This document shows positions 1,501-26,730 of a stretch of 64,000 nt of DNA, piece after piece. The DNA is taken from NCBI GenBank assembly GCA_035549195.1, contig DASZRK010000002.1:231655-295654 (forward strand). The letters run 5' to 3'. The position numbers and the translations under genes are program-made. Numbering within the stretch: position 1 is the first letter of the stretch; the number at the start of each line of letters is the position of its first letter. The DNA comes from a bacterium (GTDB taxonomy: Bacteria; Oederibacteriota; Muellerivitia; Muellerivitales; Muellerivitaceae). The notes under the pieces are model-generated. The model was not told the DNA's origin and did no database searches. It was given only the letters and a program-made list of their open reading frames with translations.

Positions 1501-4500
1501 TCAACGCAAAATGAGGATTTTTCCTACTGTTTTTCCAGTAGGGGTCTTGACCACCACGTAATAGAGCCCGCTGGCCAGGGGGCTCCCCCACTGGTCCATG
1601 GGATCAAGCTTCACTAAGGACCCCGGGGTCATATTGTGGATGTTCTTCTCGGCCACTAAGCGGAAGGCGGTGGTAAAGACCCGCACTTGGACATCGGTAG
1701 GAGCGTTCAGGGGAACGGCGACCTGGATGGGTTGGGTCCCGTCCGAAGGGTTGGGATAAACGACCGGCTTGGACCAGGTCGGAGTGGCGGTAGGGATGCC
1801 ACCGACCGTCACTTCCGCCCCGTCGTAGGGGATCCCCGTGGCCGTTCCGCTCCCCGAGCCCGTGGTGACGACGACCCCGGTCAGGGATGTCTGATAGGTC
1901 CCCGAAGGAGCGCTGGATGAGATATCCAGGACGATCAAGAGGTCTTGGGTCGCCGATCCGGGTAGGACGTCGCTGAGACCGACCGTAAGGGTCCCATCAT
2001 TGGCCGGGTAGGTCCCACTGGCTAAAAGGCTGTCGCCTCCATCCACGATCCCGTTCCCGTTGCTATCCAGGTAGACCTTGACCGAGGTGATTCCGGTCTG
2101 GTCGTTGCCCGTTCCGGAAGCCGTCAAGGAGATCTGTCCCACCGTCGTAGGACCGCCGGTCAGGTTCTGGAGCTGGACCTGCATCACCGGGACCTGCGGG
2201 GCGCCAGGAGCCTGGTTCGAATCCGGAGGCGCCGCCGGTCCAGCGGAAACCTGGAGGACCGGACCGGTCGTCGGGGTATTTGTCGGGGTTTGGGTCTTGG
2301 TCGGGCTGGAGGTCGGCGAAGGCGAATTCGTGGCCGTGGCCGTCAGCGTCGGTGTCAAGGTCCGGGTCGCGGTGGGACTGTGGGTGGGCGTGGCGGTGGG
2401 GGCCGGAGGGGTCAAGGTCCCCGTAGGGCTATCGGTCGGCGTCCCCGTCGGGGAGGCCGTGGGGGTCAAGGTCGCCGAAAAAGTCGCCGTCGAGGTCAGG
2501 CTGGCCGTCGGACTTGCGCTGGGCGTCGCGGATGGGGTGGCTGTCGGCGAGAAGGTCGGGGTCGAGGTGGGGGTACGGGTCGGACTGGAGGTGGCCGAAG
2601 GGGTCGGTGTGGGCGTCGGGCTCGAGGCGCAGGTCACCGGCGCCACATCGGGCGGGAGCGAACCCAACCGGCTTTGCAACTGGGCGTCGAAAAGCGACGG
2701 CGGGTCCAGGTTGGCCCGGTCGATCCCCTCATAGGCCACGTTCCCCCGCGGGCCCACTTGAGGCGCGTTCCCGCTCATGACCGTTCCATAAACGTAGGTC
2801 GCGGTCAGGTCCTGGGAATTGTCATAAATGGTGGCTCCCCCGGTGGGGCCGATGATGAGGGCATCCGAATCCGAGGTGTAGGTGGCCGGGGAACATTGCA
2901 CCGACCCCGCCTGCCAGTTGCCATAGGGATTGGCCGAGGTTCCCGAGTAGTTCCACACCACCCCGCCCGCGAAGGTCTCATAGGCATTGTTGCTTTGGGT
3001 CTCCCGGTTCTCGGCCAGGAGCCCGTTATTGGTCTGGGTCATCATGTCCCACAGGAGCCTTTGCGAATAGGCGAAATGGGTATCGTCGCATTCCATGGTC
3101 ACGCTGGCCGAATTCCCCATGGTCTTGATGGAGTTGCAGCGTGTGTAGACCACCATGTTGGTCATGGCGTATTCGGTGGTGAAGTTATGGCGCAGGTTCG
3201 TGGCCGTACAGCGTTTGAAGAGCACCGCCGAAGAGGCGTAGGTGTAGAACCCGTAGCCCCAACCCCCGCCGCCATAGTCCTGGGCCCCGGTGATGGAACA
3301 ATCCAGGACGGTGATTCGGGTGGACCAGGCGGGTTTGATGCCGTTCTTGGCGACATTGAGGACCTTCACGTCCCGGGCCCAACCGTTGAAGACGCCCTTG
3401 AAGGCCAAGGCGGTCCCCGCCGGGCGGCCCGAATCGTTGCTGTTGGCCAGGACCTGGATCGTCATCCCTTCGATGCCGTCGTTCTCGATGTATTGGCCCC
3501 CGTTGGGCTTGTAGAACCAGACCGTGGCGTCGCTGTTGTGCAGGCTGAAGGGGATGGGCGCGTCCAGGGTGATGACGTTGCCCGCGATGGCCGTGATCTT
3601 GCGCGGATAGCAGAGGGTGTTGCTGAAGGCCCCATCGGTGCCGGTACCCGGCGGGTCCGTGGTCCAGTTGCCGGCGCTGTTGATCGTGGAAAAATTGGGC
3701 CAGAAATACTGCTGGACCACCACCCAGTTCCCCACCGCGAAGGAAGCGGCGGAACCCACCGTGACGGACAGGTCCCCCCGGTTCACGTCGGCGCAGCTGG
3801 TCGTGACCGGCGCCTTGCCCGGCTCCGCCCATTGGCTGTAGGAGATCCCGCCGCCGCCCATGAAGGTGAAGGGCGCCTCGGTGAGCTTGTCCCCCGGGTT
3901 ATAGGAGGAGGCGATCACCACCGTGGTGGCCCCGCTTCCCGCTCCCAGGATGCGGATATTCCCGCCGGTGATGGTGACGGTCCCCGAAAGGGTCACGGAG
4001 CCGGAAGGGAGCCAAAGGGTGCCGCCGCCCATCCCCACCAGTGTGGAAAGCCCGGTCCTGACCGCGGTCGTAATGTCCCCCGAGGACGAGACGGTCACGT
4101 TGTTGCAGGGGATGGCGTCCCCCAACCCGACTTGGGAGAGCTTGTAACCACTGTAGGAATAATCATCCAGCTTGAAGGGCCGTCCACCCAAGGTCACGCT
4201 CTGGGCCACCCAGTTGGGCCCGCTGGGTTGCAGGAAGACCGAGTTCCAGGCCCCCAAGGGCGTGGGCGTGATCGTGGGCGAGTTGGTCGGACTGGGGGAA
4301 GGGGTGGCGGTGAAGGACGCGGTCGGTGTCGTCGAAGCCGTCGGACTGGAGGTAGGGCTCGAAGTGGGGCTGTTGGTCGGGCTCAGGGTGGGGGTCCAGG
4401 TGGGCGTCGCCGTGGGGCTGTTGGAGGGGGTCGGCGTGGCCGTGGAGCACCCCATGAAAAGGCGGAGGTTGTCCAGGTAGAAGGTGCCCGTGACCGTGCC

Positions 4501-6996
4501 AGGCCCGGAGTTATAAACGAACTCGAGGGCCGTGATGGAAGAGCCCTGGGTGATGCCGCCCGCCGCCCAATTGATGTTGAAGGTCACATCGTTGTTCTGC
4601 CCCGCTACCAGGGTCGGGGTGTCGCCCGAGATGGGCTGGTAGAAAGTGGTCGGCGAATCGGCGCGCAGGAACAATTGGGTCCACCCTTGGCCCGCGGTCA
4701 AGGAGGAGGATACGTTGATGTCCAACTTCAGTTGGGTGACGCTGGTCCAGTCATTGGGGGTGAATCCGGTCAGGTTGAAGAGCTGATCGTTCCAACTGGC
4801 GCCGGTGGTCACGTTCACCTGCAGGCTGTGGGTCCCTTGGGTGGCATTCAATGTGGTCACAGCCCGGGAAGCGTTGGTCCCCGACCAGGTCCCGTTCTCC
4901 GCCAGGGTCTCGGCCCCGTTCAAGAGGACCACGCAAACGGTGGCCGTGGGGCTGGGAGTGGCTGTGGGGGTCAGGGTGGCCGTGGAACTGGGGGTCGGCG
5001 TAGCGGTGGCGAGGGTGCCCGTGGGAGTGGCCGTCGGCGTGGCGGTGGGGGATGTATTCACCGCGAAGGCCGAGAGCAGGAACTGGTATTTGCCCTGGTA
5101 TCCCTGGTCGGGCTCGGTGACCTCCCAGGAATCCTCGGGCCATGTGTTCCCCCAATCCTTATAGGACTTCATGGGCGGTTGGCCCTGCGGCGGGTTGAGG
5201 GTCGGTCCCGAATAGGAGGCGTCGGGCGCGAAGTTCTGGTTGGGTCCTCCCGCCAGGATCCCCGGCGCCGGCCCCACCGCCCCGCCACCCGTGTTCCCGT
5301 CGAAGGTCGTCCCTTGGTAGAACCAACTGTGGTAGATGGACATGATCGATTTGGAGGCCCCCAGGTTGGCACCCTGGGTCCCCATGTTGGTCAGATAGAC
5401 CCAGTTCAAGGGGTTTCGGCCATGGAAATAATGGAGGTACTCCTCCGCTTGGTTCGCGTAAGCCGTGTTCTGGGCCGGGTTGGCATTGGTCTTCACGGCG
5501 AAAAGGAGTTGGTTGCCCCAGGAAGCCTTCAACTGGTTGGAGCCCCAGGTGTAATGCCCCGGGTACATGTAGCCCAAGTAGGGATCGTTCACCTGCTGGT
5601 TCATGATGTAGTTCTGGCATTCGTTCTTCAGGGAGTTCTTGATGGCCGTCACCACCGCGGCCGTCGCCCCCGGGGCCAGGCAATAGGACACCATCCCCAA
5701 TTCCAGCGGCTCGCAAAGGGACGCGTCGAAATGGTCGGCCCCTGCGTTGGGCGGATTGGAGACCGGCCGGAAAGAGCTTTCAATGACCGCTGAGGAGTTG
5801 TAATTGGCGTCGAAATAGGTCTGGTAGGTGGCGCTCCCGGTCAGGGCGAAAAGTTCGGCGGCGGCGGCCACCCGGGCCTGGGCGTCCCAGGCCGAGGATT
5901 GGTTGGCGTTGGCGCTGGAAACCCCGGTGGAATCGAAGGTGACCGGCGAGGGATTGGCGGAAAGATAGCCCCAAGCCGAGACCGCGGCGTTCTGCAGTGT
6001 CACCGCGTAGGAGCTATAGAGCGGATAGGCCTGGAAGAGCCGCGCCCCCAGGGCAAAGGCCATGGCCCCGGTGGCGGTGGCGGTGGTGGAGACGTTCAGG
6101 TAGTAGCGCTTGGCGGTGTCGTTGGCCGGGTTCCCCGGGTTGTTGGAGGTGCTCGCGTTGCTGTAACCCACCATCGAATAAAGGGCCCCGTCGCTGGAGC
6201 GCTGCATGCGCAGCATCCAGTCCAGTTCATATTTGACCTCGTCCAGCATGTCGGGCACCCCGTTGCCCGATTCGGGGATGTTGGTGTTGTCCCCATAGCC
6301 GTTGGGGTACCACTCCGCCGAATGCATCAGGTACCAAAGGGTCGCGTGGGCGAAGGTCACATATTTCCCATAATCCCCCGCGTCATGCCAGCCGCCATGC
6401 ACATCCCGGGCCGTGCCCGCCCCTTGGTCGGCGTTCGCATTCCAGAGGTGGGCGACCAGGTCCTGATTGGCTCCCTCATGGCAGGCGGTATGGTTCCAGT
6501 TCGCCCCTCCATTGGCCGAGGAGATATTCATCCCGCAACGCTGATAGAAGAACATCCGCTGGGAAGCCGTGACCACCCCGTTATAGACGCTGTCCAAAAC
6601 TTGGAAATTGTAGGATTGCCCGCCGGGATTGGAGCCGCCGGGCACCTGCACGTAATAGGTCCCGGGCGCGCTCAAGGTGGTGAATGTTCCCTGCCACACC
6701 TTATCGCCGGAAAAGGTGCTGTCCGTGGCGCCCGCGCCCCAGGTCACCGCGCTCCCGGTGAAGACCGTGGCCCCATTGGAGACATTGATGACGTTGAAGG
6801 TGGCGCCCGCGCCCAGGTTGAAGCTCGAAGGGCTCCCGACTCCGGTGTTGGGCTGGGCGAAGATGACGATCTTTGGATCGGCGGGCTTGTAGCCGAACTG
6901 GTCCACGATGATGTTCGACAGGACCGCTCCATGGACCGGCCCTAGGGCCGAAGCGAACAGGAGAAAGATCCCAAAACGTTTCAAGTCAGGACGCAA
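1501..6996 (-). CDS. Giant secreted multi-domain glycoside hydrolase: N-terminal Ig-like (CelD_N) + GH9 catalytic domain, CBM4/9/22-like beta-sandwich, right-handed beta-helix (pectate-lyase-like) domain, beta-sandwich domain, T9SS-type CTD
   Basis: 1831 aa with a signal peptide. GH9 motifs: IIVDQFGYKPADPK (Ig-like N-domain), GGWHDAGDYGKYV, PDMLDEVKYELDWMLRMQ, YFHGRNPLNWVYL, and C-terminal ..TEPDQGYQGKYQFLL carrying the catalytic Glu. Three TPT/SPT linkers. A beta-helix-like segment (NGWARDVKVLNVAKNG..). C-terminus [11 protein letters not shown]...[10 protein letters not shown]...GKILILR. Confidence 0.85.
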   Translation of the reverse strand: MRPDLKRFGIFLLFASALGPVHGAVLSNIIVDQFGYKPADPKIVIFAQPNTGVGSPSSFNLGAGATFNVINVSNGATVFTGSAVTWGAGATDSTFSGDKVWQGTFTTLSAPGTYYVQVPGGSNPGGQSYNFQVLDSVYNGVVTASQRMFFYQRCGMNISSANGGANWNHTACHEGANQDLVAHLWNANADQGAGTARDVHGGWHDAGDYGKYVTFAHATLWYLMHSAEWYPNGYGDNTNIPESGNGVPDMLDEVKYELDWMLRMQRSSDGALYSMVGYSNASTSNNPGNPANDTAKRYYLNVSTTATATGAMAFALGARLFQAYPLYSSYAVTLQNAAVSAWGYLSANPSPVTFDSTGVSSANANQSSAWDAQARVAAAAELFALTGSATYQTYFDANYNSSAVIESSFRPVSNPPNAGADHFDASLCEPLELGMVSYCLAPGATAAVVTAIKNSLKNECQNYIMNQQVNDPYLGYMYPGHYTWGSNQLKASWGNQLLFAVKTNANPAQNTAYANQAEEYLHYFHGRNPLNWVYLTNMGTQGANLGASKSIMSIYHSWFYQGTTFDGNTGGGAVGPAPGILAGGPNQNFAPDASYSGPTLNPPQGQPPMKSYKDWGNTWPEDSWEVTEPDQGYQGKYQFLLSAFAVNTSPTATPTATPTGTLATATPTPSSTATLTPTATPSPTATVCVVLLNGAETLAENGTWSGTNASRAVTTLNATQGTHSLQVNVTTGASWNDQLFNLTGFTPNDWTSVTQLKLDINVSSSLTAGQGWTQLFLRADSPTTFYQPISGDTPTLVAGQNNDVTFNINWAAGGITQGSSITALEFVYNSGPGTVTGTFYLDNLRLFMGCSTATPTPSNSPTATPTWTPTLSPTNSPTSSPTSSPTASTTPTASFTATPSPSPTNSPTITPTPLGAWNSVFLQPSGPNWVAQSVTLGGRPFKLDDYSYSGYKLSQVGLGDAIPCNNVTVSSSGDITTAVRTGLSTLVGMGGGTLWLPSGSVTLSGTVTITGGNIRILGAGSGATTVVIASSYNPGDKLTEAPFTFMGGGGISYSQWAEPGKAPVTTSCADVNRGDLSVTVGSAASFAVGNWVVVQQYFWPNFSTINSAGNWTTDPPGTGTDGAFSNTLCYPRKITAIAGNVITLDAPIPFSLHNSDATVWFYKPNGGQYIENDGIEGMTIQVLANSNDSGRPAGTALAFKGVFNGWARDVKVLNVAKNGIKPAWSTRITVLDCSITGAQDYGGGGWGYGFYTYASSAVLFKRCTATNLRHNFTTEYAMTNMVVYTRCNSIKTMGNSASVTMECDDTHFAYSQRLLWDMMTQTNNGLLAENRETQSNNAYETFAGGVVWNYSGTSANPYGNWQAGSVQCSPATYTSDSDALIIGPTGGATIYDNSQDLTATYVYGTVMSGNAPQVGPRGNVAYEGIDRANLDPPSLFDAQLQSRLGSLPPDVAPVTCASSPTPTPTPSATSSPTRTPTSTPTFSPTATPSATPSASPTASLTSTATFSATLTPTASPTGTPTDSPTGTLTPPAPTATPTHSPTATRTLTPTLTATATNSPSPTSSPTKTQTPTNTPTTGPVLQVSAGPAAPPDSNQAPGAPQVPVMQVQLQNLTGGPTTVGQISLTASGTGNDQTGITSVKVYLDSNGNGIVDGGDSLLASGTYPANDGTLTVGLSDVLPGSATQDLLIVLDISSSAPSGTYQTSLTGVVVTTGSGSGTATGIPYDGAEVTVGGIPTATPTWSKPVVYPNPSDGTQPIQVAVPLNAPTDVQVRVFTTAFRLVAEKNIHNMTPGSLVKLDPMDQWGSPLASGLYYVVVKTPTGKTVGKILILR

Positions 6997-7049: not shown

Positions 7050-7092
7050 CCGGCAAAAAAAAGCCGACCCGTGAAGGCCGGCTTTTATTTTA
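7050..7092 (-). terminator. Putative intrinsic terminator downstream of the GH8 gene (A-run, GC hairpin, T-run)
   Basis: Minus-strand RNA reads aaaauaaaaGCCGgccuucacggguCGGCuuuuuuuu directly after the GH8 stop at 7090. A 4-5 bp GC stem is followed by U8. The A-tract on the other side suggests bidirectional potential. Confidence 0.4.
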
Positions 7093-10000
7093 TCGGAGGA
7101 CCAGGATCTTCCCGACGGATTTCCCGCTCTTGGTGTAAACGACCACGTAATAAAGGCCGCTGGCCAACGGCGTTCCCCAATCGTCACGCATCTGAACGGT
7201 CAAGGGCCCATAGGCCTGATCGGTGTAATCCTGTTCCTGAACCTTCCGGAAGGCCGTGGTGAAGATCTGGACCTTGACGTCCGACGTGCCCGTGAAAGGA
7301 GGTGGCAGGACCTGGACCGGTCCTCCGTCGGAGGGGTTGGGATAGACGATCGGCTTGTTCTCCTTGAAAGGCGTGGGGGTGGCCGTGGCCGTCGGGGTAA
7401 AGGACGAGGTCGGAGTGAAGGAAGCCGTCGGGGTCGAAGTCGGTGCGACCACGGTGATGGTCGCTCCGCTCAAAGGCAGGGGATTGAAACTGGCGGCCTG
7501 TCCGTTGGTGCCGGAGGCGCCCGTCAGGCTGAAGGAATAACCACCGGTCGTGGAGGTCCCGGAGAAATTCACCTGGAAGGTATAGGTCACCGAACCGCCA
7601 CCCAAGGGAATGACGTCGGAAAGTCCGCTGAAGGTGGCCGTCGAACCGCTGAATCCGACCGGTGAACCATCCGGCGAACCATTCTTGAGCAGGGTCACCG
7701 AAAGAATATTGGAGGTCGGGTTCCCCGTCTCGGTGAGGGTCAGGCTGGTCATGGTCACATTGGTCGTACTGGGATTGGTCAACACGACCTCGATCACCGG
7801 TACATTGGAAGCCCCTTGCAGTTGATTGCCGCTGGGTGCGCCCGAACCGTTCGCCACTGCCACGATGACCGGCGTCGCCGTGAAGGTGGGGGTAACGGTC
7901 GGTGTATTCGTGGGTGTAAAGGTGGAAGTCGGGGTGTGGGTGGCGGTATTGGTCGCGGTGTTGGCCAAGGTATTGGTGGACGTGGAAGTGGCGGTCCGGC
8001 TGGCCGTCGCTGTCGGGGTGTTCGTCGCGGTATTGGTCGCCGTATTGATCAGGGTATTGGTGGCCGTGAAGGTGGCGGTGCCGGTGGCCGTTGAGGAAGC
8101 TGTGCCCGTCGCTGTGTTAGTGGCCGTATTGACCAAAGTCGCGGTGGGAGTGCCCGAAGCTGTCCGGGTGGCGGTATTGGTCGCCGTGCTCGCTAAAGTA
8201 TCGGTGGGGGTCTGGGTCGGTGTCTTGGTGGCGGTAAGGGTCGCAGTGGAGGTATTGCTGTTCGTGGCGGTCGAGGTTGCCGTATTCGTGGTGGTAAGGG
8301 TGGGAGTAAGGGAAGGCGTCGGCGTCATGGAGGGGCTCAAGGTCCCGGTCGGACTGAGGGTCGGGGTCGATGTAATGGTGGGGGTTCCCGTATCCGTGGC
8401 GGTCGAAGAAGGCGTGCGGGTCGCCGTTTGGGTGGCGCTATTGGTCGTCGTGGAAGTGGCGGTCCTGGTCGCCGTGTTGGTGGAGGTGTTCGCCAGGGTC
8501 GCCGTCGGGGTCAGGGTCGGGGTGAAGCTAGGCGTGGCGGTCAAGGTGGCCGTGGCCGTCCGGGTAGGCGTGGAGCTGGAGGTCGGTGTCCCACTATGAG
8601 TGGCCGTGTTGGTCGGTGTGCCGGTGTTGGCAAGGGTGGCGGTCGGAGTGGATGAGGGGGTGCTCGTGGAGGTGTAGGTATTCGTCCGGGTCGCCGTATT
8701 GGTCGGCGAACTGGTGGACGTCAAGGTGGGGGTATTGCTGGGGGTGGTGGTGGCGGTCCGGGTCGCCGTATTGGTGGCCGTGCTGGCGACCGTGTTGGTC
8801 GGGCTATTGGTCGGGCTGAAAGTGGGGGTCCGCGTGGGTGTGGCCGTGACGGTCGAAGTGGCGGTATTAGTGACGGTGCGGGTCGGTGTGTCGGTGGGCA
8901 CAATGGTCACCACCGGCGTGCTGGTCGGAAGAGGCGTGGGAGTGTTCCAGCCCATTCCAGCCAGACAGACCTGGTCGACCCAGAAAGCGAAGGTGACGCC
9001 CGACACGGGGGCCTGGGCCACCCATTGGAGGGAAGTAACATGGGTCATCGCCTGGGCATAGCTCAGAGTAGTACCCATGGCCGAAGCAGGGCCCCAACTT
9101 TCCGGAGCAAGTCCGGCCGCGAGCGATCCAGGCTGGGTGACATATTGCCATGTGTTGGCTGAAGTAATTGGAATCATGAAGCCATATTGATTGGCGTTCC
9201 CACCATTCGATGGGTCAACGGCGGGGTTATAAAAATTCAGCCGAACGGTCTGGGGCGCGGAGGTAGCCTTGATATAAAAGGCGATGTTGGTCATGGAGGT
9301 CGGTGCACTGGCGAGATTCTGATAACCCGTGGTCAATTCGGTGGCCAGGGAATAACCGGCATAGACCGTTTCGGGCTGTGTCAAGCCGCCATAGTAAACG
9401 TTGGTCGAGCCGCCGTTGATGGCGCAGGAACCGGTCACATAGGCCGAGTAGGCCGGGCCCGTGGTGGCCCCGCCGACATAAACGATCGTGGAGGGTCCGG
9501 AGAAGGTGTAAAGCTGGGGCGTCGCGACCGGCGTGTTGTTCACACTGGCGTAACCAAAGGTGAACCAATAACCGTTCACCCGGTTCATGCTGTTCCCATC
9601 CTCCACGTCGTCGAGCATATAGCAGGCCAAGGGCGTGGGCGAAGGGGTCGGAGTGCAGGTCTGGGCCCCGCAAGGAGGCGTGCCGCACACGATGTTGGGG
9701 AAATTCCCCGTGGCCACCAGTTGGGCGAGGAAGCAGACCGAGTCTTGGAAATAGGTCCAGGAACCACAGGTAGGGTAACGGCTCATCATGGTGCTGTAGA
9801 TGTTGTTGATGTAGGACTGGTTCGTCGCGTTGTTCGCAAGGGAGAGGGAGGCCACCAATACGCCCCCGATCTGCAGATCATTACAATTGGACCCTGACGG
9901 CGAGCCGTAAGGGGTGGAATTGACCGTCCAGAACTCCTCGATCTCATTGGCGCCATTGACCCCGACCCCGGCCTGTACCGTGGTGGCGAACTTGGTCACG

Positions 10001-10929
10001 ATGGAAGCGCCGGCGCTTTTGTTCCAAAGCCAGTCGATACCGATACGCAAAGGATAGCGGGAGGCGTCATAGCCCATCTCCAGGGCCGGACGGCCGGAGT
10101 TGGTGGTCGCGTTCAGGCTGGAATCGACCTGATTGGGCATGAAGCCCAGTTGAGAATATTTATTGTAGACCGTGGGCAGGAATGTCCCGTAGATCCAGTT
10201 GTTGGGAATGTTCCAGTTATGGCCCTGGGCGTCGTAGGCGTTCCAGCAGCTGAACCAAGCCGGTTCCATGTAGCTGGAGTAAAGGGGATATTGGTAGGCG
10301 TCCCCCGAGTAGATGGTTCCGGTACCCACCTCGTAACTCCAAATGGCGTTGATCATGTTCTGCCATTGGGCCTTGTAATTAATCGCCCCGCCCGATCCCC
10401 ATATCTTGTCGGCCATGAGCAGGGCCATGGCCATGTCCTCGTCCGCGTCGGTAGCGCCGTTGGCACCCTTGATGCCGCCGTTGTTGTCCAGATTCCAATC
10501 CATCACATAATGATTGCTGGAGTCGGGCATCCATTGCACGGCGTATTTCCACAATCCATCGAACAGGGTCTTGTCGTTCATCATGACGGCGATGAGCATC
10601 CCATAGCCGATACCCTCGGAGACCGTATCGTTTCCCACGTCGGGCCGCTGGACGCGAAGGGCTCCCGCCAAGGTCCCGCCCCCGCGCTTGGTCCCGCTGC
10701 TGGTCACGTAGTGCGTGTACCAGCCGATGTAATTGGTCGAGACCGCCGCATTCATCGTGGCGTTCGGGCCGCCATTGGGGAGATAGACCCCACCATAGGA
10801 ATTGTTGTGGGGAAAGGTGACCGACCCGCCGCCGGAATTGACCGCCTGGGCGTTCAAGACCGAGACCGAAAGGACGAATAAGAGGATCGAAGCGGTTAAA
10901 TTTTTGAAGTGGCTGAAAAACGATTTCAT
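7090..10929 (-). CDS. Secreted GH8 glycoside hydrolase (endoglucanase/xylanase/chitosanase family) + CBM-like domain + ~380-aa Thr/Ser/Pro/Asn low-complexity linker + beta-sandwich domain + T9SS-type CTD
   Basis: Signal peptide [29 protein letters not shown]. Exact GH8 PROSITE-type signature [20 protein letters not shown], plus [11 protein letters not shown]. The C-terminal module ([21 protein letters not shown]..) is followed by [21 protein letters not shown]...[33 protein letters not shown] sits 5 nt upstream of the ATG. Confidence 0.85.
7800..8940 (-). repeat. Low-complexity Thr/Ser/Pro/Ala/Asn-rich linker-coding tract (ACN/CCN codon repeats) inside the GH8 gene
   Basis: Protein segment [27 protein letters not shown]... 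is about 380 aa long. The antisense strand gives the spurious VGV/VAV-rich ORFs 7826..8599 and 8699..9061. Similar tracts occur at ~1..540, 2080..2730, 4170..4480, 4800..5160, 11800..13150, 15200..16050, 19130..20110 and 22190..22310. Confidence 0.7.
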
Positions 10930-11015
10930 TGGGCCTCGTTGTTGTTCAAAAAACGGGGTCGAGCATCGGACCGAGGATGTAAAAGGTATCTCAATATTCC
11001 CGTCTTGTAAATTAC

Positions 11016-11094
11016 GGCGGCCAGAAAGGCCGTCTTTTTGGTTTACCGATAAATCGAAGACCCTTTGCTCTGTTTAACCCGGATCCGGTTAAAC
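11016..11094 (-). promoter_or_regulatory. Two stem-loops in the GH5-GH8 intergenic spacer: the near-perfect palindrome GTTTAAC-c-CGGATCCG-GTTAAAC (11072..11094) and a GC hairpin + T-run (11016..11041)
   Basis: The palindrome starts 5 nt after the GH5 stop codon (11099) and lacks a U-tract on the coding strand. The second hairpin, GGCGGCCagaaaGGCCGTC followed by TTTTTGG, is oriented for the plus strand. They may act as terminator or RNA-stability hairpins, or as an operator for a dimeric regulator. Confidence 0.35.
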
Positions 11095-11098
11095 GGCC

Positions 11099-14000
11099 TC
11101 AGCGCAGGATCAATAGTTTCCCCACTGACCGGCCGCTCTTGGTCTGGACCGCAACATAGTAGAGGCCGCTGGCCAAGGGCGTCCCCCAGGCATCCCTTAA
11201 TTCCAGGGTCACGGGTCCATAGGTCAGGTTCGAATAAGCATCTTCCCTCACCTTCCGGAAAGCCGTCGTGAAGATCTGCACCCTCACATCCGAGGTCCCG
11301 GTGTAGGGCGGAGGCAGGACCTGCACCGGCCCGCCGTTGGAAGGGTTCGGGTAGAGGACCGGTTTGTTCTCCTGGAATGGCGTCGGGGTCGAGGTGGCCG
11401 TTGGGGTGAAGGAGGAAGTGGGCGTGAAGGAAGCGGTCGGTGTCGCCGTTGCGACCACCACAGTGATGGTCGCTCCGGACAAGGGCAACGGGCTGAAATT
11501 GACCGCTTGGCCGTTGGTGCCGGACGCGCCCGTCAGGTTGAAGGAATAACCTCCGACGGCGGCCGTCCCGGAAAAGTTCACCTGGAAGGTATAGGTCACC
11601 GAGCCGCCGCCCGAGGGAACGATATCGCTCAGGCCGCTGAAGGAGGCCACGGAGCCGCTGAACCCCACCGGTGAACCTTCCGGCACACCGTTCTTCAAAA
11701 GGGTCACCGACAGGATGTTCGCCGCGGGGTTCCCCGTTTCGCTCAAGATCAGGCTTGTCAGGGTCACGTTGGTCCCGCTGGGATTGGTCAGCACCGATCC
11801 TTCCACGGGCACATTGGAAGCCCCTTGCAATTGGTTCCCGCTGGGAGCGCCTCCTCCCAAGGAGACCTGGACGGTCACAGCCGTCGGGGTAAAGGTCGGA
11901 GTGATCGTCGGCGTGAAACTACGGGTCGGGGTCCAGCTGTGGGTGGCGGTGAAGGAATTCGTCGGGCTGGGAGTGGCCGTTCGCGTAGCTGTGGCGGTGG
12001 CCGTATTGGTCGCGGTGTTGACCAGGGTGTTCGTGGGGGTATCGGTGGCGGTGTGTGTCCGGGTCGGAGTGGCGGTTGCCGTATAAGTGGCGGTGGGGGT
12101 CGTTGTGGCTGTCCGCGTGGCGGTCCGGGTCGGAGTGCCGGAAGGAGTGGGAGTCCCGGTCCAGGTGGGAGTATGGGTCGGGATCAAGGTACCCGTCGGG
12201 CTGTCCGTTGGGGTCGGGGTGATCGTAGGCGTTCCCGTGGCGGTCGAAGTGGCCGTGGAAGTTGTGGTCGAAGTGAGCGTGGATGTGCGCGTGGGGGTCG
12301 CTGTCGGACTGTTCGTGAGGGTCGAGGTGAAAGTGGCGGTGTTGGCCAGGGTCGCGGTGGGAGTGCGGCTGGGCGTGGAGGTCGGGGTGGCCGTCGGTGT
12401 ATTGACCGCCGTGTTGGTCGAAGTGGCCGTAGCCGTCCGGGTCGCGCTTTGGGTGGCCGTGGAGGTGGCGGAAGCAGTGGACGTGGAGGTCGTGGTCCGG
12501 GTCGGGGTGCCTGTGGGTGTAGGGGTCCCGGTACGCGTGGGCGTATCCGTCGGGATCAAGGTTCCCGTGGGACTGTCCGTAGGGGTCGGGGTGATCGTGG
12601 GGGTCCCCGTAGGGCTCGGGGTCCAGGTCGCCGTCCGGGTCGCCGTGTTCGTGGCCGTCGGGGTGGCCGTGGAAGTGACCGTGCGGGTCGCAGTGGAACT
12701 AGGCGTATTCGTCACGGTGGAAGTAGGGGTATTGGTCCTTGTCAGGGTGGCGGTAGGGGTAAGGGTCGGGGTGGAGGAAGCGGTGGCTGTTGCGGTCAAG
12801 GAAGGCGTGAAGCTGTTGGTGAAGGTCCGGGTCGGCGTGTTGGAAACCGTGGAGGTGGGGCTGTTGGTGCGGGTGGCGGTGTTCGTGGGCGTATCGCTGG
12901 GAGTGGCGGTGGGGCTGTTGGTCCGGGTGGGCGTGTTGGTGGGAGTCCCGGTCGAGGTATTGGAAGCCGTGGAGGTGGGGCTGTTCGTGCGGGTGGCGGT
13001 GTTCGTGGGCGTATCGCTGGGAGTGGCGGTAGGGCTGTTGGTCCGGGTGGACGTGTTGGTGGGAGTACCGGTCGAGGTATTGGTCCGGGTCGGGCTCGAG
13101 GTCGCCGTCGAGGTCGGAGTGAAGGTCGGCGTGTAGGTCCTGGTCGCGGTCGAGGTGGGCGTATTCGTGGGCGCGCAGACCACAGTGATGGCGATGGTAT
13201 TGCTGGTCACCGGCCCTCCGCCCGACCATTGGGCTATCCCACGATCGCTGACGACCTGGCAGGCATCACCGGCGGTATAGCTGTAGGACCCCACGATGAA
13301 GGTGATCGGCACACAGCTCCCGCCTGGCAGATTGCTCACCACCCAGCTCAAATTGGGGTAGGTCGTTCCTGTCGGGTTGATGGAAACCGGTGTACCCGAT
13401 ACGGTCACGGTCCAAGGACTATAGCCGGGTCCTTGGAAGGCCCACGACAGGGGATTGGTGATGTTGTCGGTCACGGTGACCGAATTGGCCGTGACCGAAC
13501 CGGATGAATTGCAGACATTCAAGACCATGGTGATGGGGGCGGCGTCCGAATAGCCCGAGGTCGGGCCGCCGGTGGTCTTCGTGAGGGTGATGTTGGGAGG
13601 GACCGTGGTGGGGGTGGCGGTGGCCGTACGGGTGGGCGTGCTGGTGGGCACCGGCGAACTGCCCGAGCAGGTCGGGGCGACGGTGGCCAATTGGTTCACG
13701 ACCGGCTGCCCATGCCAGGAGTTCAACGAGGAAGGCAGGGCCGAGAGCATGGCCGGGCAGGCGCCGTTGTGCCAGGACCAGGCGGTCCAGGAATAGACGT
13801 AACTGCGGTTGTTGCTCCCGTTGGCGAAGGTGAAGAGGGCGTTGTCGAAAGTGCCGCTGTCGTTGTTGCAGTTGGGCCCCGAGGGGTCGGGCCCGAACTC
13901 CCCGATGAAGACCGGATGGTTTGCCGCCGCGATGGTGGTCTCGGTATCCCAATTGGAGGAGTTGTCCGTCCCGTTGCCCTTGTGCCCGTAGATGTGCACA

Positions 14001-14761
14001 TCGTAGGCGAACCCATTGCCCGCGTTGGTGAAGGGATAGGAATCGATGGACCGCAGGTCATAGGCCCAGTCCAACCCGCCGATGAAGATGATGTTGTTGG
14101 CCCCGGTCCCACGGATGGCGTTGATGAGGGCCTGGTGGCCCGGGGTCGTGAAGCCCTGGGTGGTGTTCCCGCCGCTCTGCCAAACGGACCAGGAGACGCT
14201 CTTGGGTTCGTTATAAAGGCCGAAGAAGACCGCGGGGTTGTTCTTATAACGGTTGGCCACGTTGGTCCAGAAGGTCACCGCGTTGGCGTCGGGCATATCC
14301 TGCTGGCCGGTGGCCGTGCCCCAGCCGCTCCCGCAAGGGGCGGAGGCGGTGCTGGAGGTCCCCGACCAATGCAGGTCGATGATGACATAGGCGTTGGCGC
14401 CCGAGCAGTAATTGACGATGTTGTCCACGATGGTCTGGTAGGAGGAGGCGCTGCCCCCTTGGCAGCCGAACCATCGGTCCTGGTTCACGGGCAGACGGAT
14501 GATGTTGGCCTTGTAGGTCCCGACCGCGGCCTGGACCGAGGAAAGGGGCGGCCCCTCACCGGTGTTGCTCCATTCCAAACTGGGAACGTTAACGCCGCGT
14601 AAACGGACCGAACAGCCGCTGGAGGTCTGGAAGTGGTTGCCCGAAACAAAAAGGTCCGGCGGCGCGGCCAAGGCGCTTGAGGACAAAAGGAAGGCAAAAA
14701 GAAGGACGCCTTGCCTGAACCGGTTCAATGGTCTCTTTTGGAATTTCATTTCCGTACGCAC
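11099..14761 (-). CDS. Secreted GH5 glycoside hydrolase (cellulase family A) + DUF11-like conserved-repeat domain + long Thr/Pro linker + beta-sandwich domain + T9SS-type CTD
   Basis: GH5 motifs: IIRLPV, VFFGLYNEPKS (acid/base NEP) and VFIGEFGPD (nucleophile GEFG). Mid-domain ITLTKTTGGPTSGYSDAAPITMVLNVCNSSGSVTANSVTVTDNITN is DUF11-like. The C-terminal cassette is ~85% identical to that of the GH8 at 7090 and ends KPVLYPNPSNGG...[25 protein letters not shown]. Confidence 0.8.
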   Translation of the reverse strand: MRTEMKFQKRPLNRFRQGVLLFAFLLSSSALAAPPDLFVSGNHFQTSSGCSVRLRGVNVPSLEWSNTGEGPPLSSVQAAVGTYKANIIRLPVNQDRWFGCQGGSASSYQTIVDNIVNYCSGANAYVIIDLHWSGTSSTASAPCGSGWGTATGQQDMPDANAVTFWTNVANRYKNNPAVFFGLYNEPKSVSWSVWQSGGNTTQGFTTPGHQALINAIRGTGANNIIFIGGLDWAYDLRSIDSYPFTNAGNGFAYDVHIYGHKGNGTDNSSNWDTETTIAAANHPVFIGEFGPDPSGPNCNNDSGTFDNALFTFANGSNNRSYVYSWTAWSWHNGACPAMLSALPSSLNSWHGQPVVNQLATVAPTCSGSSPVPTSTPTRTATATPTTVPPNITLTKTTGGPTSGYSDAAPITMVLNVCNSSGSVTANSVTVTDNITNPLSWAFQGPGYSPWTVTVSGTPVSINPTGTTYPNLSWVVSNLPGGSCVPITFIVGSYSYTAGDACQVVSDRGIAQWSGGGPVTSNTIAITVVCAPTNTPTSTATRTYTPTFTPTSTATSSPTRTNTSTGTPTNTSTRTNSPTATPSDTPTNTATRTNSPTSTASNTSTGTPTNTPTRTNSPTATPSDTPTNTATRTNSPTSTVSNTPTRTFTNSFTPSLTATATASSTPTLTPTATLTRTNTPTSTVTNTPSSTATRTVTSTATPTATNTATRTATWTPSPTGTPTITPTPTDSPTGTLIPTDTPTRTGTPTPTGTPTRTTTSTSTASATSTATQSATRTATATSTNTAVNTPTATPTSTPSRTPTATLANTATFTSTLTNSPTATPTRTSTLTSTTTSTATSTATGTPTITPTPTDSPTGTLIPTHTPTWTGTPTPSGTPTRTATRTATTTPTATYTATATPTRTHTATDTPTNTLVNTATNTATATATRTATPSPTNSFTATHSWTPTRSFTPTITPTFTPTAVTVQVSLGGGAPSGNQLQGASNVPVEGSVLTNPSGTNVTLTSLILSETGNPAANILSVTLLKNGVPEGSPVGFSGSVASFSGLSDIVPSGGGSVTYTFQVNFSGTAAVGGYSFNLTGASGTNGQAVNFSPLPLSGATITVVVATATPTASFTPTSSFTPTATSTPTPFQENKPVLYPNPSNGGPVQVLPPPYTGTSDVRVQIFTTAFRKVREDAYSNLTYGPVTLELRDAWGTPLASGLYYVAVQTKSGRSVGKLLILR

Positions 14762-14942: not shown

Positions 14943-17819
14943 TCAGCGAAGCACTAATAACTTCAACGTCCAATGACGTCCCCCACCGGAAAGGACCAGG
15001 TAGTAAAGGCCGTTCGCGAAAACTTTTCCTTGTGGGTCGGTCAGGAGCAAGGGAATGGATTGCCCCGCCACGCTCAAGGTCAGGTGGATGTCCTCCACCT
15101 TCCGGAAAGCCAATGTAAAAACTTCGATCCGCAGGTCTTTCCCCGCCGAGCCAGGCGAAAGGAGGGTCACTTGCTCCCCTGTTTGCACCGGGTTCGGATA
15201 GAGCAGGGGTTTGTCCGTCGCCAAGGGGGTCAGGGTCGGACTCAGGGGCGGCGTTGTGGAAGAAGGGGTGGCGGAGGATGTCGTGGTCGGGGTGGCCGTG
15301 GGGGTCAACGTCGAGGCCGGGATGGAAGTGGCGCTGGCGGTCCAAGTCGGGGTCGCCGTCCCCGTAAAGGTCGGCGTCAAGGTACGCGTTACGGTGAAGG
15401 TGGCCGTGGTGGTTGCGGTCACCGTGAAGGTACGCGTAGCGGTCGGGGTAGTGGTGGCCGTCCCTGTGGAAGTTCCTGTTGAAGTAGGGGTGGCGGTCGG
15501 CGGCAAGGTCCCCGTGGGCGAAAGGGTCCGAGTGGCGGTAACGGTCGGGGTCGCCGATGCGGTCGCACTGGGTGTGGTCGTCGAGGTGGAGGTAGCCGTT
15601 CGGGTCGGACTGAAGGTTCCGGTCGCCGTCCAGGTGGCGGTACCGGTCGGAGTGGCGGAAGGAGGGGCCGTGGGGGTGAAGCTGGTCGTGGAAGTGGCCG
15701 AAGGGGTCGTGGTGGGGCTCGGGGTGAAGGTCCCTGTCGAGGTCATCGAGGCGCTTGGGGTGGGCGAATAGGTTCCCGTGGGGGTCCAACTGACCGTGGC
15801 CGTCGCGGAAGCCGTGGCTGTCCGGCTGGCGGTGAGGGTCGCCGTGGACGACGGGGTCGAGCTGGGGGTAACGGTGGCCGTCCGGCTAGCCGTCAGGGTC
15901 GGCGTCGCCGACATCGAACTGGTCGGTGTGGAACTGGCCGTGCGGGTAGGGGTCGGCGAGATCGTGGGGGTGGGCGTATAGCTCCCCACCGTCGGGGTCG
16001 GCGTGGCGGTCGGGGGCTTGGGGGTATTGGTGGGGGTCGCCGTCCAAGGGGTGGTCGGGGTGGGGGTGGGCAGGTTCGCGATACGAATGACCTGGATGGC
16101 GTTCACTTGCGAGGTATCGGCGGTCGAACTGAACGACAGGTCCAACTGGCCGCTCGAGACCAGTACCGTCACGGTCCGGTCATAGGCCGTGTGTTCCCCT
16201 CCGGCCGCGCTATAGACGTCCAAACCGCTGATCTCCGGTTGGCCTTGGGCCGTCAGGCTAAAGACCCGCCCCCCCGGGTGGGCATTGGGGTCGTAGTTCT
16301 CGCAGAACTTCAAGGTCACCTGGTAATAGCCCGTGGGCACGGTGAAATGATAGATGGGATTGCCCCAGCGCTCGGTCTGGTAGAGGGTCTGCTGGTTGTT
16401 GACCGTATTGGAGATGGTCTGGCCGCTGTAGGTCGAGGTGCTCCCCGAGGTGGTGGTGTCATAACCCCAACTCCCCGCCGAGAAAACCTTGTCGGCGGCC
16501 CAGGTGGCCCCCGCGCTGTCCACGAACTGGGGCCCCCCTGCGTTCACCCGGATCGTGAGCGGGGCATAAGCGGAAAGGGTCGGGGTGGGGGTCGGCGTCC
16601 CATAGAGGTTGTAGTCGAGGAAATTCCCGGAAAGCATCAGCAGCGACATCACCGTCCAGGATTCGTCGTAATAGGTGCCCCCCACCAGCAATTTCGATCC
16701 CACCAGGTCGTTGTAGGTATCGTCCATATAGGCCTGGTAGTTGCGGCTCACCATCCCCCCCACCCCGGCGGGTCCCACAAAGGCCGCCGATTGGAACCCA
16801 GGGTTCTGGGAAACGGTCAAGGTGGGCAATTGGGCGTCCGGGGTTCCGTTCAAGTGGTAGCCATCCACGATGGAGACGGCCCCGATGGCGGAGAAGAAAT
16901 TGCTGGTCTTGGTGGCATAGGTCTCCGCCGCCGAATTCCCGAACCAGAGGTAATCCTGCACCATGCGGAAGGGCGTGCGGCAGGCGTCGTATTGGTAGTC
17001 GGTGTAGGCTGACCCCACCGAGTTCTGGGAAACCCCCGCGCTGTTGCACCAGGCCGAGACCAGGCCGTTGGTGGCATTGCCATAGCCCTGGGCGAGGTTG
17101 TTGTTGAGGATGGTGTAACAACTGGCGGCGATATTGAGCCAACCCGGTTGACCTGTGGCGGTGGCGAATTCCCGGAAATAGGCGGGCGCGAAATAGGAGG
17201 GATTGATGGCCCCGAACCCGTCCCCCGCGGTGACGATCTGCCCCGCGCTGTTCATATAGGAATAGAGCTTTCCGATCTGGGTGACCGCCAGGCTCTGATA
17301 GCTGGCCCCCAAGGACCCGCTCCCGCCCCATTGGCGGGCGGCCATGAGCAGGGCCCAGGCCATGTCCTCGTCCCCGTCAGTGGCGGCGCCGCTTCCGGCG
17401 GTCCCGCCCGAGGCATCGATGTACCAGTTCATCAGGCCGCTGCCGTCCAGGTGCAATTGCTCGTACTTCCAGAGCTTATCGAAGAGGTTCTGGTCGTTCA
17501 TATAAACGGCGATGAGCATGCCGTAACCGATGCCTTCCGACACGGTGGAATTGAGGGCCAGCCCCGAGTCGTTGGGCCGCTGCACCCGTAGGAACCCGCC
17601 CGCGCCCGTCGAGGTCACGCAGTCGGCGTACCACTTGTTGTAGGCGGCGAGGATGTCGGCGTTGTTATAGATGGAGGAATGGAACCCATAAGGATTGTCC
17701 CGGTTCTGGGGGAAGGGGAAGTTGCCCGTGGTGCCGTTCACACTTTGCGCGTTCATTGAACCGGTCCAACAAATGGACACAAGGAAGGCACAGAGGAATT
17801 GGGGGAGCCGGACCTTCAA
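14943..17819 (-). CDS. Secreted GH8 glycoside hydrolase + malectin/CBM57-like domain + Thr/Pro/Ser linker + T9SS-type CTD
   Basis: Signal peptide MKVRLPQFLCAFLVSICWTGSMNAQS. Exact GH8 signature ATDGDEDMAWALLMAARQWG, plus [11 protein letters not shown]. Malectin-like segment IRVNAGGPQFVDSAGATWAADKVF...LYQTERWG...RVFSL...LDLSF. CTD KPLLYPNPVQTGEQV...NGLYYLVLSGGGRHWTLKLLVLR. Confidence 0.85.
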   Translation of the reverse strand: MKVRLPQFLCAFLVSICWTGSMNAQSVNGTTGNFPFPQNRDNPYGFHSSIYNNADILAAYNKWYADCVTSTGAGGFLRVQRPNDSGLALNSTVSEGIGYGMLIAVYMNDQNLFDKLWKYEQLHLDGSGLMNWYIDASGGTAGSGAATDGDEDMAWALLMAARQWGGSGSLGASYQSLAVTQIGKLYSYMNSAGQIVTAGDGFGAINPSYFAPAYFREFATATGQPGWLNIAASCYTILNNNLAQGYGNATNGLVSAWCNSAGVSQNSVGSAYTDYQYDACRTPFRMVQDYLWFGNSAAETYATKTSNFFSAIGAVSIVDGYHLNGTPDAQLPTLTVSQNPGFQSAAFVGPAGVGGMVSRNYQAYMDDTYNDLVGSKLLVGGTYYDESWTVMSLLMLSGNFLDYNLYGTPTPTPTLSAYAPLTIRVNAGGPQFVDSAGATWAADKVFSAGSWGYDTTTSGSTSTYSGQTISNTVNNQQTLYQTERWGNPIYHFTVPTGYYQVTLKFCENYDPNAHPGGRVFSLTAQGQPEISGLDVYSAAGGEHTAYDRTVTVLVSSGQLDLSFSSTADTSQVNAIQVIRIANLPTPTPTTPWTATPTNTPKPPTATPTPTVGSYTPTPTISPTPTRTASSTPTSSMSATPTLTASRTATVTPSSTPSSTATLTASRTATASATATVSWTPTGTYSPTPSASMTSTGTFTPSPTTTPSATSTTSFTPTAPPSATPTGTATWTATGTFSPTRTATSTSTTTPSATASATPTVTATRTLSPTGTLPPTATPTSTGTSTGTATTTPTATRTFTVTATTTATFTVTRTLTPTFTGTATPTWTASATSIPASTLTPTATPTTTSSATPSSTTPPLSPTLTPLATDKPLLYPNPVQTGEQVTLLSPGSAGKDLRIEVFTLAFRKVEDIHLTLSVAGQSIPLLLTDPQGKVFANGLYYLVLSGGGRHWTLKLLVLR

Positions 17820-26507: not shown

Positions 26508-26730
26508 ACGCCCTCCTTAGGTTCGAGTGGAAGCACTATCGATCCCCCGGAAAAGCCTTTCAAGCGGGCCTTGGATTAAACCGTTTCCCCTTAGTAACCC
26601 GCTTTCGGTTGAGGGACGGCGGGACGGCGTGCGATAATCCCCTGCGGTGTCCTTTGCCCGTTCATTGAACGGGTTCACTGCGTCCGGACGGTTTCACGTT
26701 TGATTTCGGATCTTGATCTTGGGGAAACGA

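Follow-up and report, generated by a model that had tools for sequence, protein, structure and literature searches.

The GH8 and GH5 genes and their surroundings

The window, the whole 64-kb stretch of DNA analysed here, belongs to an uncultured soil bacterium of candidate division FCPU426 and matches contig CAZXBC010000014.1 of assembly GCA_964638935.1. It contains a GH8 and a GH5 gene whose products end in the same kind of tail, composed of a ~140-aa nine-stranded beta-sandwich, a Pro/Thr linker of ~30 aa, and an 84-aa CTD. DOM is the name given here to the beta-sandwich, which has no Pfam or NCBIfam model. A neighbouring GH9 gene also carries a tail of this kind. The relevant features are listed below.

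1504..2253, reverse strand: tail of the GH9 gene (1501..6996), with a long-type DOM (aa 1582-1733), short linker, and CTD (aa 1747-1831)
7055..7086, reverse strand: terminator-like hairpin and U-run just past the GH8 stop codon (-18.7 kcal/mol, z-score -2.4)
7090..10929, reverse strand: GH8 gene, ORF of 1279 aa; Pfam Glyco_hydro_8 at aa 66-315 (E 2.4e-25)
7093..7344, reverse strand: GH8 CTD (aa 1196-1279), seven-stranded, T9SS type A-like
7345..7443, reverse strand: GH8 short Pro/Thr linker that joins DOM to the CTD (aa 1163-1195)
7444..7863, reverse strand: GH8 DOM (aa 1023-1162), a nine-stranded beta-sandwich in the AlphaFold model
7864..8080, reverse strand: GH8 distal Pro/Thr-linker DNA, weakly aligning with GH5 linker DNA at 11873..12053
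11099..14761, reverse strand: GH5 gene, ORF of 1220 aa; Pfam Cellulase (GH5) at aa 47-332 (E 4.7e-37)
11102..11353, reverse strand: GH5 CTD (aa 1137-1220)
11354..11452, reverse strand: GH5 short Pro/Thr linker (aa 1104-1136), gapless against the GH8 linker
11453..11872, reverse strand: GH5 DOM (aa 964-1103), gapless against the GH8 DOM

Both catalytic domains pass their Pfam gathering thresholds (GH8, 89.7 bits against 24; GH5, 128.4 bits against 23.5) and, as the first-pass annotation had stated, they are unrelated. The GH8 protein runs from a Sec-type signal peptide through the GH8 domain, an unannotated middle domain of ~230 aa, and a Pro/Thr linker of ~355 aa to DOM, the short linker, and the CTD. 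Its putative signal peptide lies in a 29-residue N-terminal stretch and was read by eye from the sequence. The GH5 protein has the same order, with a middle domain of ~135 aa and a Pro/Thr linker of ~430 aa. Degenerate 12-nt-periodic repeats occur throughout the Pro/Thr linkers of both genes.

Extent of the shared tail

BLASTP of the two proteins with low-complexity filtering returns one alignment only, which is gapless and joins aa 1023-1279 of GH8 to aa 964-1220 of GH5 with 203/257 residues identical (79%), 91% positives, and an E-value of 2e-89. With the stop codons counted in, the shared block of 257 aa corresponds to 7090..7863 in GH8 and 11099..11872 in GH5. A shared tail had been noticed before; its size and identity, then put at ~230 aa and ~85%, are revised to the values given here. 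The likeness was checked for confinement to the generic CTD and extends well beyond it, with 80–82% identity in DOM, about 85% in the linker between the domains, and 76% in the CTD. By comparison, the other CTDs in the window are 18–57% identical to one another and to the GH8/GH5 pair (seven CTDs compared), so the pair stands far above the CTD background. At their 3' ends, the two genes thus code for paralogous versions of a single two-domain tail, and both the homology and its extent are established.

At the DNA level, blastn aligns 7124-8080 with 11133-12053 at 73.7% over 961 nt, with a weak likeness that extends through roughly 220 nt of the Pro/Thr linker. The linker DNA at 7864..8080 and 11873..12053 is likely the 5' edge of the shared segment, judging by this alignment. 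On the 3' side of the stop codons, blastn finds no DNA similarity between the two loci, and the terminator-like hairpin of GH8 has no counterpart at GH5, where the downstream region is unrelated. The GH9 tail is more distant, with a DOM 29–38% identical to those of GH8 and GH5, depending on the alignment, and a CTD at 57%. Its sequence points to the same architecture with an older divergence.

Age of the GH8/GH5 pair

The first-pass annotation had read the likeness as a recent recombination or transfer that moved a whole cassette between enzyme genes. Such events do occur in sister genomes, where GH8 and GH5 can share 3' ends of 0.9–2.7 kb that are 99–100% identical. Moreover, the tails of the pair match each other (79%) better than either matches any tail found elsewhere, the highest identities being 71% in the protein database and 57% in the genome collection. 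However, the Ka/Ks estimation that had been proposed gives an old copy, with dN of 0.147, dS of 1.01, and dN/dS of 0.14, and the tail DNA is 75% identical overall and 55% at third codon positions. Divergence at synonymous sites differs by part: dS is lowest for DOM (0.76), intermediate for the linker (1.0), and saturated in the CTD (2.0). Conserved residues use the same codon at a frequency of 0.53 against 0.42 under random synonymous choice. The CTD alone is at 0.43 and looks random, whereas DOM is at 0.59–0.62 (Fisher p 0.03–0.06 against the CTD). Identity is 68–88% all along the tail DNA, and stretches of higher identity in the pair do not exceed about 90 nt. The synonymous-site data therefore contradict a recent transfer in this genome, which is extremely unlikely. 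The window pair is instead probably an old product of tail copying; its synonymous sites are nearly saturated, and purifying selection maintains the 79% identity at the protein level.

Concerted evolution of tails in sister genomes

The proposed survey of sister genomes was carried out on 67 related loci, mostly from FCPU426 metagenome-assembled genomes, with others labelled uncultured proteobacterium/Proteobacteria or unclassified bacterium. DOM and CTD are both present in 47 ORFs of these loci. A Pfam scan of 30 N-termini yielded 11 GH5, 10 GH8, five GH9, two GH44, two expansin/Barwin-like, and two unknown, placing the tail on GH5, GH8, GH9, GH44, and expansin-like proteins. In every sampled FCPU426 genome, relatives of GH5, GH8, and GH9 already bear such tails, and one sister genome repeats the GH5-GH8-GH9 gene order of the window. 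Hence the data look like homogenisation among existing tails and not recruitment of new enzymes, and the earlier suggestion of a modular means of directing new enzymes to the surface is not borne out.

Exchange of the cassette between enzyme genes, by contrast, does happen in this lineage. Trees of DOM and of the CTD group by genome and not by enzyme. The best match to another enzyme of the same genome exceeds the best match to the same enzyme of another genome in 17/22 cases for DOM and 16/22 for the CTD. Four genomes contain a GH8/GH5 pair with 99–100% identical DNA for 900–2700 nt back from the stop codon. In all four pairs, the identity drops off inside the Pro/Thr-linker DNA, and the DNA past the stop codon is unrelated. 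In one quartet, tail identity is 100% in one genome, 99.9% in the other, and 75% between the two, with GH5 catalytic parts 77.5% identical between genomes. Near-identical 3' DNA that runs from the stop codon into the linker indicates recurrent gene conversion, and concerted evolution is directly visible in these genomes. The sister genomes come from metagenome assembly, in which polishing could in principle have sharpened some of the identical repeats. The repeats are argued to be real because one pair has 27 mismatches and short-read assemblies break at the tails. The two domains do not always move together: in one GH9, DOM matches that of a GH5 at 80% identity, whereas the CTD is 88% identical to that of a GH44. 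By these sequence comparisons, the histories of DOM and CTD differ in some genes.

For the window pair, gene conversion is proposed by analogy with the sister genomes because no high-identity tract survives. The pair may instead have seen no exchange since an ancient origin, with vertically inherited tails that resemble each other through co-adaptation to a species-specific secretion or anchoring machinery. The dN/dS of 0.14 signifies strong purifying selection, and the synonymous sites of the CTD are fully saturated. In addition, T9SS CTDs are reported to be species-specific, those of Porphyromonas gingivalis and Tannerella forsythia not being interchangeable (PMC11285876). However, the gapless alignment spans a low-complexity linker of 30 aa, which selection on the fold would not keep position by position, DOM retains synonymous identity above the random level, and copying at the DNA level can be seen in sister genomes. 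Uninterrupted vertical descent is therefore unlikely, and gene conversion probably gave rise to the window pair as well.

The CTD and the question of T9SS-like export

T9SS CTDs are Ig-like seven-stranded 3+4 beta-sandwiches of about 67–108 residues (PMC11285876). The structure model of the tail (pLDDT 89) consists of a nine-stranded and a seven-stranded sandwich, with the CTD strands at residues 172 to 255 (pLDDT > 90) and a disordered, low-confidence stretch at 153-166 in the short linker. This linker is nonetheless conserved between GH8 and GH5 (dN 0.076). The model establishes the fold class of both domains, and the predicted CTD, with seven strands and 84 aa, fits the T9SS CTD fold. One of the Foldseek matches is to the C-terminal region of PorU (structure 6za2).

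Sequence profiles are less clear. Against curated cut-offs of 23 bits for TIGR04183 and 27 for PF18962, the GH8 tail scores 16.7 and 15.1 and the GH5 tail 15.5 and 18.6. FlgD_ig scores are similar to the Por_Secre_tail scores and both fall under the cut-offs for GH8 and GH5, and no T9SS component (SprA, PorV, PorU, GldK-N) is encoded within the 64-kb window. These observations would suit a CTD that is no secretion signal but a generic FlgD-like Ig domain with a different role, for example in adhesion or aggregation, in a phylum that lacks T9SS. Against this, the homologous tails of GH9 (25.1) and of the window protein o995 (24.4) pass TIGR04183, and the predicted fold resembles that of T9SS CTDs. 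The CTD also reaches the last residue in 7/7 window proteins, whose putative Sec signal N-termini, read by eye, are hydrophobic with an AxA-type end. At least 103 such CTD ORFs, on diverse secreted hydrolases, occur in about 1 Mb of FCPU426 loci. The FlgD-like alternative is thus improbable, and the CTD more plausibly serves T9SS-like export. The export-and-anchoring role that the first-pass annotation gave the cassette is putative, given the sub-threshold scores of both CTDs and the absence of machinery genes from the window. T9SS has been described as confined to the Fibrobacteres-Chlorobi-Bacteroidetes superphylum (PMC11205867), a restriction that was counted against T9SS-like export here.

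DOM and its possible roles

The GH8 DOM is modelled with high confidence (pLDDT 95, pTM 0.88) and has no Pfam or NCBIfam family match at E<=5. A DOM profile finds 1775 representative proteins. Tandem arrays of up to 29 copies occur in proteins of 2000–5700 aa from several phyla, including giant FG-GAP/VCBS proteins of Planctomycetota. These arrays speak for DOM as a stalk, a reading that loses force because the 350–430-aa Pro/Thr linker already supplies length.

The company of cellulases could be explained if DOM were a binding module, either cohesin-like for protein-protein assembly or CBM2-like for carbohydrate. Its best PDB profile matches are indeed cohesins, at weak E-values of 0.19 and 0.63. 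However, cohesin TM-scores are below 0.5, Cohesin (PF00963) gives no match to DOM at E<=5, and no dockerin was noticed in the Pfam scans made for other domains. CBM2 modules bind through a face of conserved surface tryptophans; the GH8 and GH5 DOM sequences contain no Trp and thus lack such a face, and comparison with the CBM2 fold gives a TM of 0.37–0.49. A binding role is unlikely. Less probable still is a cell-surface multi-enzyme cellulolytic assembly built from cohesin-like DOM, T9SS-like CTDs, and long Thr/Pro tethers in a Gram-negative candidate phylum outside Firmicutes. Were the cohesin-like reading true, concerted tail evolution would keep every enzyme fitted to a common receptor or scaffold, for example the giant tandem-DOM proteins.

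Proposed explanation

The explanation judged probable as a whole combines old tail copying in the window pair and recurrent gene conversion with T9SS-like export and a stalk role for DOM. In FCPU426, tails would be copied repeatedly between secreted-enzyme genes through non-reciprocal homologous recombination, that is, gene conversion. The 5' junction would fall in repetitive Pro/Thr-linker DNA, and the 3' limit would be the stop codon, beyond which the sequences are no longer homologous. Through this copying, the tails, unlike the catalytic domains, would evolve in concert within a genome. A Sec signal peptide would bring each enzyme to the periplasm, from which the CTD would direct passage across the outer membrane over a T9SS-like route and may be cut off upon attachment to the surface. 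The long Pro/Thr linker would hold the catalytic domain off the cell, with DOM as a cell-proximal stalk or pedestal domain beside the CTD.

Comparison with known systems

Cytophaga hutchinsonii is one example of a bacterium with T9SS-linked multi-modular cellulases. Others, all within the Bacteroidota/Fibrobacterota group, are Ca. Paraporphyromonas polyenzymogenes (PMC5831590) and Fibrobacter succinogenes (PMC6851124). The locus shares with them clustered GH5/GH8/GH9-type enzymes that have signal peptides, ancillary modules, and linkers and that end in a sorting domain of ~80 aa. It differs in its FCPU426 host, the GH8 and GH5 CTDs under curated cut-offs, the exceptionally long Thr/Pro linkers of 350–430 aa, the unannotated beta-sandwich ahead of the CTD, and the lack of visible machinery genes in the 64-kb window. 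The gingipain RgpB, with a catalytic domain, Ig-like domain, and CTD, likewise has an Ig-like sandwich just ahead of a seven-stranded CTD, and in both systems CTDs appear species-specific (PMC11285876). In RgpB, the Ig-like domain packs on the CTD, whereas here a disordered linker of ~30 aa lies between and the histories of the two domains can differ.

Scaffoldin cohesins differ from DOM, which gives no significant sequence match and TM-scores below 0.5, has no dockerin partner seen, and sits on the enzymes themselves. The tandem copies of DOM recall stalk domains known from fibrillar adhesins and from giant surface proteins, but the DOM of the window is a single copy on enzymes, beside a sorting domain. 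Module shuffling among cellulases via Pro/Thr or Ser-rich linkers has long been known from CenA and Cex of Cellulomonas fimi, the xylanases and cellulases of Cellvibrio, and the multidomain enzymes of Caldicellulosiruptor. Like those cases, the tails combine unrelated catalytic domains, near-identical non-catalytic modules, low-complexity linkers, and junctions in linker DNA. Unlike them, the shared module is a putative secretion or anchoring tail in place of a cellulose-binding module, and its concerted evolution is phylum-wide with several independent 100%-identical pairs.

Implications

The concerted evolution found here is unusually clean, with tracts of 100% identical DNA between the stop codon and linker DNA. 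Tails and linkers of this repeated kind disrupt both assembly and gene calling, and most database relatives are truncated ORFs, so that enzymes in such genomes are probably counted too low. The DOM family, with about 1,800 representative proteins, tandem arrays, and no Pfam model, merits a family definition. The secreted enzymes of this uncultured phylum, known from soil and peat and associated with cellulose degradation, seem to be built from exchangeable catalytic heads on a common tail that joins a Thr/Pro tether to a putative stalk domain and a sorting domain.

Extent of the shared GH8/GH5 tail

The GH5, GH8, and GH9 genes are minus-strand neighbours arranged head to tail. Each product has a hydrophobic, signal-peptide-like N-terminus, as read from the sequence, and very long Thr/Pro-rich linkers, the DNA of which is filled with degenerate repeats of 12-nt period. 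All three end in a tail composed of DOM (a β-sandwich domain), a short Thr/Pro linker, and a CTD, a C-terminal domain resembling the T9SS type A sorting domain. With four further proteins carrying a CTD without DOM, there are therefore seven CTD proteins inside 28 kb:

1501..6996, minus strand: GH9 gene, 1831 aa; Pfam Glyco_hydro_9 and CelD_N
7090..10929, minus strand: GH8 gene, 1279 aa; Pfam Glyco_hydro_8, E 2.4e-25
11099..14761, minus strand: GH5 gene, 1220 aa; Pfam Cellulase/GH5, E 4.7e-37
14943..17819, minus strand: second GH8 with malectin domain, CTD without DOM
18858..21845, minus strand: pro-kumamolisin-type peptidase, CTD without DOM
21885..24011, minus strand: pro-kumamolisin-type peptidase, CTD without DOM
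26713..29115, plus strand: 800-aa unknown secreted protein, CTD without DOM

BLASTP with low-complexity filtering gave one alignment between GH8 and GH5, covering the last 257 residues of each (7090..7863 and 11099..11872) with 203 identities (79%), 91% positives, no gaps, and an E-value of 2e-89. Identity is 80–82% in DOM (~140 aa), ~85% in the Thr/Pro linker (~30 aa), and 76% in the CTD (84 aa). The remaining CTD pairs among the seven are 18–57% identical, so the GH8/GH5 likeness, which includes DOM, lies well above background and extends beyond the CTD. This confirms the shared C-terminal module described in the first-pass annotation, whose figures of ~230 aa and ~85% identity are revised to 257 aa and 79%. 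A low-complexity artefact was rejected as the cause of the match, since the ungapped 257 aa consist mostly of non-repetitive domains. Assembly collapse was likewise rejected, as 25% of bases differ between the two copies. GH9 ends in a tail of like architecture that is far more diverged, with identities of 29–38% in DOM, depending on the alignment, and 57% in the CTD.

Past the block, ~220 nt of linker are still weakly alike (73.7% GH8/GH5 DNA identity over 961 nt). The loci are unrelated 3' of the stop codons, where GH8 has a terminator-like hairpin of its own that was seen by folding and missed by a consensus terminator scan.

Age of the GH8/GH5 pair

The module had been attributed to recent recombination or transfer, which the codon alignment of this pair does not support. 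DNA identity is 75%, with 82%, 89%, and 55% at codon positions 1, 2, and 3, and the block has a dS of 1.01, a dN of 0.147, and a dN/dS of 0.14 (Nei-Gojobori). Among the three parts, dS rises from 0.76 in DOM through 1.0 in the linker to 2.0 in the CTD. Identical codons are used at 107 of 202 conserved amino acids (0.53), against an expectation of 0.42 for random synonymous choice under the codon usage of this gene set. The fraction of 0.43 in the CTD corresponds to saturation, while the centre of DOM shows a weak excess at 0.62 (Fisher p 0.03 versus the CTD). No recent tract was found in the GH8/GH5 codon alignment. The likeness of the two proteins is kept by purifying selection, not youth.

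Distribution of tails in relatives

A pattern scan built from 13 sequences, run on genomes at one per species, yielded 67 loci. Most belong to MAGs labelled candidate division FCPU426, several to "uncultured proteobacterium" or "Proteobacteria", and several to "bacterium" only. FCPU426 is a rarely sampled phylum; a link between its 16S cluster and the cellulose-binding Goldbacteria has been reported (PMC7031533, PMC10434106). Catalytic domains in these loci are only 41–52% identical to those of the window, so all of the relatives are distant. The loci contain 103 CTD-ended ORFs, 47 with DOM directly before the CTD. The DOM profile used 36 sequences with the bias filter off; an earlier three-sequence profile with default filter missed about half (27 vs 48 ORFs). 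Enzyme families were assigned by scanning 30 N-termini from DOM-plus-CTD proteins one by one with Pfam. Clustering these regions by single linkage was dropped, as shared middle domains merged GH5 with GH8.

N-terminal domains of DOM-plus-CTD proteins in relatives
GH5: 11
GH8: 10
GH9: 5
GH44: 2
Expansin/Barwin-like: 2
Unknown: 2

The GH5-GH8-GH9 order of the window recurs in one genome (locus L003), where all three genes carry DOM plus CTD. The CTD-only proteins of relatives are much more varied and include GH12, GH16, GH18, GH30, peptidases, and β-propellers.

FCPU426-like tail-bearing clusters also occur in several Microflora Danica MAGs labelled "uncultured proteobacterium" and in one Centralia "Proteobacteria bacterium". 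Loci under proteobacterial labels include L002, L003, L005, L006, and L012, and these labels are probably wrong. The tail relatives among the database protein matches (P0001–P0090) are mostly truncated ORFs whose start falls within DOM or the Thr/Pro linker, and contigs from short reads stop at tails or linkers (loci L004, L011, L001, L010, and others).

Concerted evolution of the tails

Neighbour-joining trees of DOM and of the CTD group tails by genome, not by enzyme family. For the 22 tails with both kinds of comparator, the best match on a different enzyme of the same genome exceeded that on the same enzyme of a different genome by 17:5 for DOM and 16:6 for the CTD. Four genomes each contain a GH8 and a GH5 gene that are 99–100% identical in DNA for 900–2700 nt back from the stop codon, with identity dropping to random within the Thr/Pro linker and right after the stop codon. 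The genes of these pairs lie 9–110 kb apart or on separate contigs. In one GH9, DOM is 80% identical to that of a GH5 and the CTD 88% identical to that of a GH44, so the short linker between the two domains is a further site of exchange junctions. The tails thus bear the mark of repeated non-reciprocal recombination between copies already in place. In the relatives, the homology used by conversion is that of linker and tail DNA, and conversion ends at the stop codon, where homology ends. A literature search for gene conversion in cellulase tails returned nothing useful.

A quartet from two genomes allows the window pair to be placed. Its tails are 100.0% and 99.9% identical inside each genome and 75% across genomes, with GH5 catalytic parts 77.5% identical across the same two. 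The 75% DNA identity of the window pair equals this between-genome divergence, so the last homogenisation of the window GH8 and GH5 tails is old. The proposed cassette exists and does undergo exchange, while neither a recent date nor the recruitment of new enzymes by the cassette is supported here.

An unannotated ~230-aa domain after the GH8 catalytic domain (residues 431–665, ~8935–9639, minus strand) also follows GH5 catalytic domains in sister genomes (L019_4892, L063_6533). Its presence on both enzymes may be the reason that homogenisation repeatedly involves GH8/GH5 pairs. The GH5 middle domain (residues 395–530, ~13172–13579, minus strand) is 77–78% identical to domains of non-GH5 proteins in other FCPU426 genomes (loci L032 and L036), although nothing there exceeds 52% identity to the GH5 catalytic domain. 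Either the middle domain is a further mobile module or its conservation is unusually strong.

Structure and putative export of the tail

AlphaFold models the tail at a pLDDT of 89, with the CTD predicted as a seven-stranded sandwich. The modelled CTD matches the 3+4 Ig-like fold of T9SS cargo CTDs (PMC11285876). TIGR04183 scores of the GH8 and GH5 CTDs (16.7 and 15.5) are below the cut-off of 23; the CTDs of GH9 and one peptidase are above the curated-model threshold. No T9SS machinery genes were found within the 64-kb window, and a literature search for T9SS in Goldbacteria or FCPU426 gave nothing useful. Sec export would deliver the enzymes to the periplasm, from where the CTD would direct outer-membrane passage via a T9SS-like route. 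CTD cleavage and attachment of the enzyme to the surface may follow. A tether of 350–430 aa, probably glycosylated, would then hold the catalytic head, with DOM occupying the cell-proximal end.

DOM matches none of the Pfam and NCBIfam models searched. As a Foldseek search with both domains together matched only generic tandem-Ig structures (TM <0.3), DOM was modelled alone, resulting in a nine-stranded sandwich (pLDDT 95, pTM 0.88). Searched with this model, Foldseek returned GH123, cohesins, and CBM2, with TM-scores <0.5. The top PDB sequence-profile matches are two scaffoldin cohesins, whose E-values of 0.19 and 0.63 fall short of significance. Against 1.84 billion representative proteins, the DOM profile identified 1775 proteins at E<=1e-3. 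Many contain 5–29 tandem copies in proteins of 2000–5700 aa, including FG-GAP/VCBS giants of Planctomycetota (P0091–P0233), and DOM is also present on GH30 and GH18+Kelch enzymes and one propeller protein. The simplest reading is that DOM is a stalk or pedestal domain, often adjoining the CTD; a cohesin-like or CBM-like binding role is a less probable alternative.

Genes beyond the hydrolase cluster

A 1096-aa ATPase-plus-TPR regulator with AfsR/SARP-like TPR matches (29128–32418, minus strand) lies between the hydrolase cluster and a group of membrane-protein and GH44 genes. This group begins with three tandem paralogous proteins, each ~440 aa long and predicted to have multiple transmembrane stretches (32503–33891, 33949–35286, and 35382–36695, plus strand), which had no match in Pfam or NCBIfam. 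Speculatively, they might be glycosyltransferases or handle polysaccharide. Just downstream is a GH44 (EpsB-like) gene without CTD (36713–38290).

Comparison with known systems and implications

Linker-mediated shuffling of modules among cellulases is classical and a close parallel. Cohesin arrays and adhesin stalks bear a looser likeness. The closest systems include the T9SS-linked multi-modular cellulases of Bacteroidota (PMC5831590), and the gingipain RgpB has a close layout of an Ig-like domain followed by a CTD (PMC11285876). As a practical point, repeats fragment assemblies and gene calls, and those of FCPU426 are broken by the repeated tails and linkers. Beyond this practical point, the analysis contributes DOM, a family without a model, and clean phylum-wide evidence of secretion tails evolving in concert.
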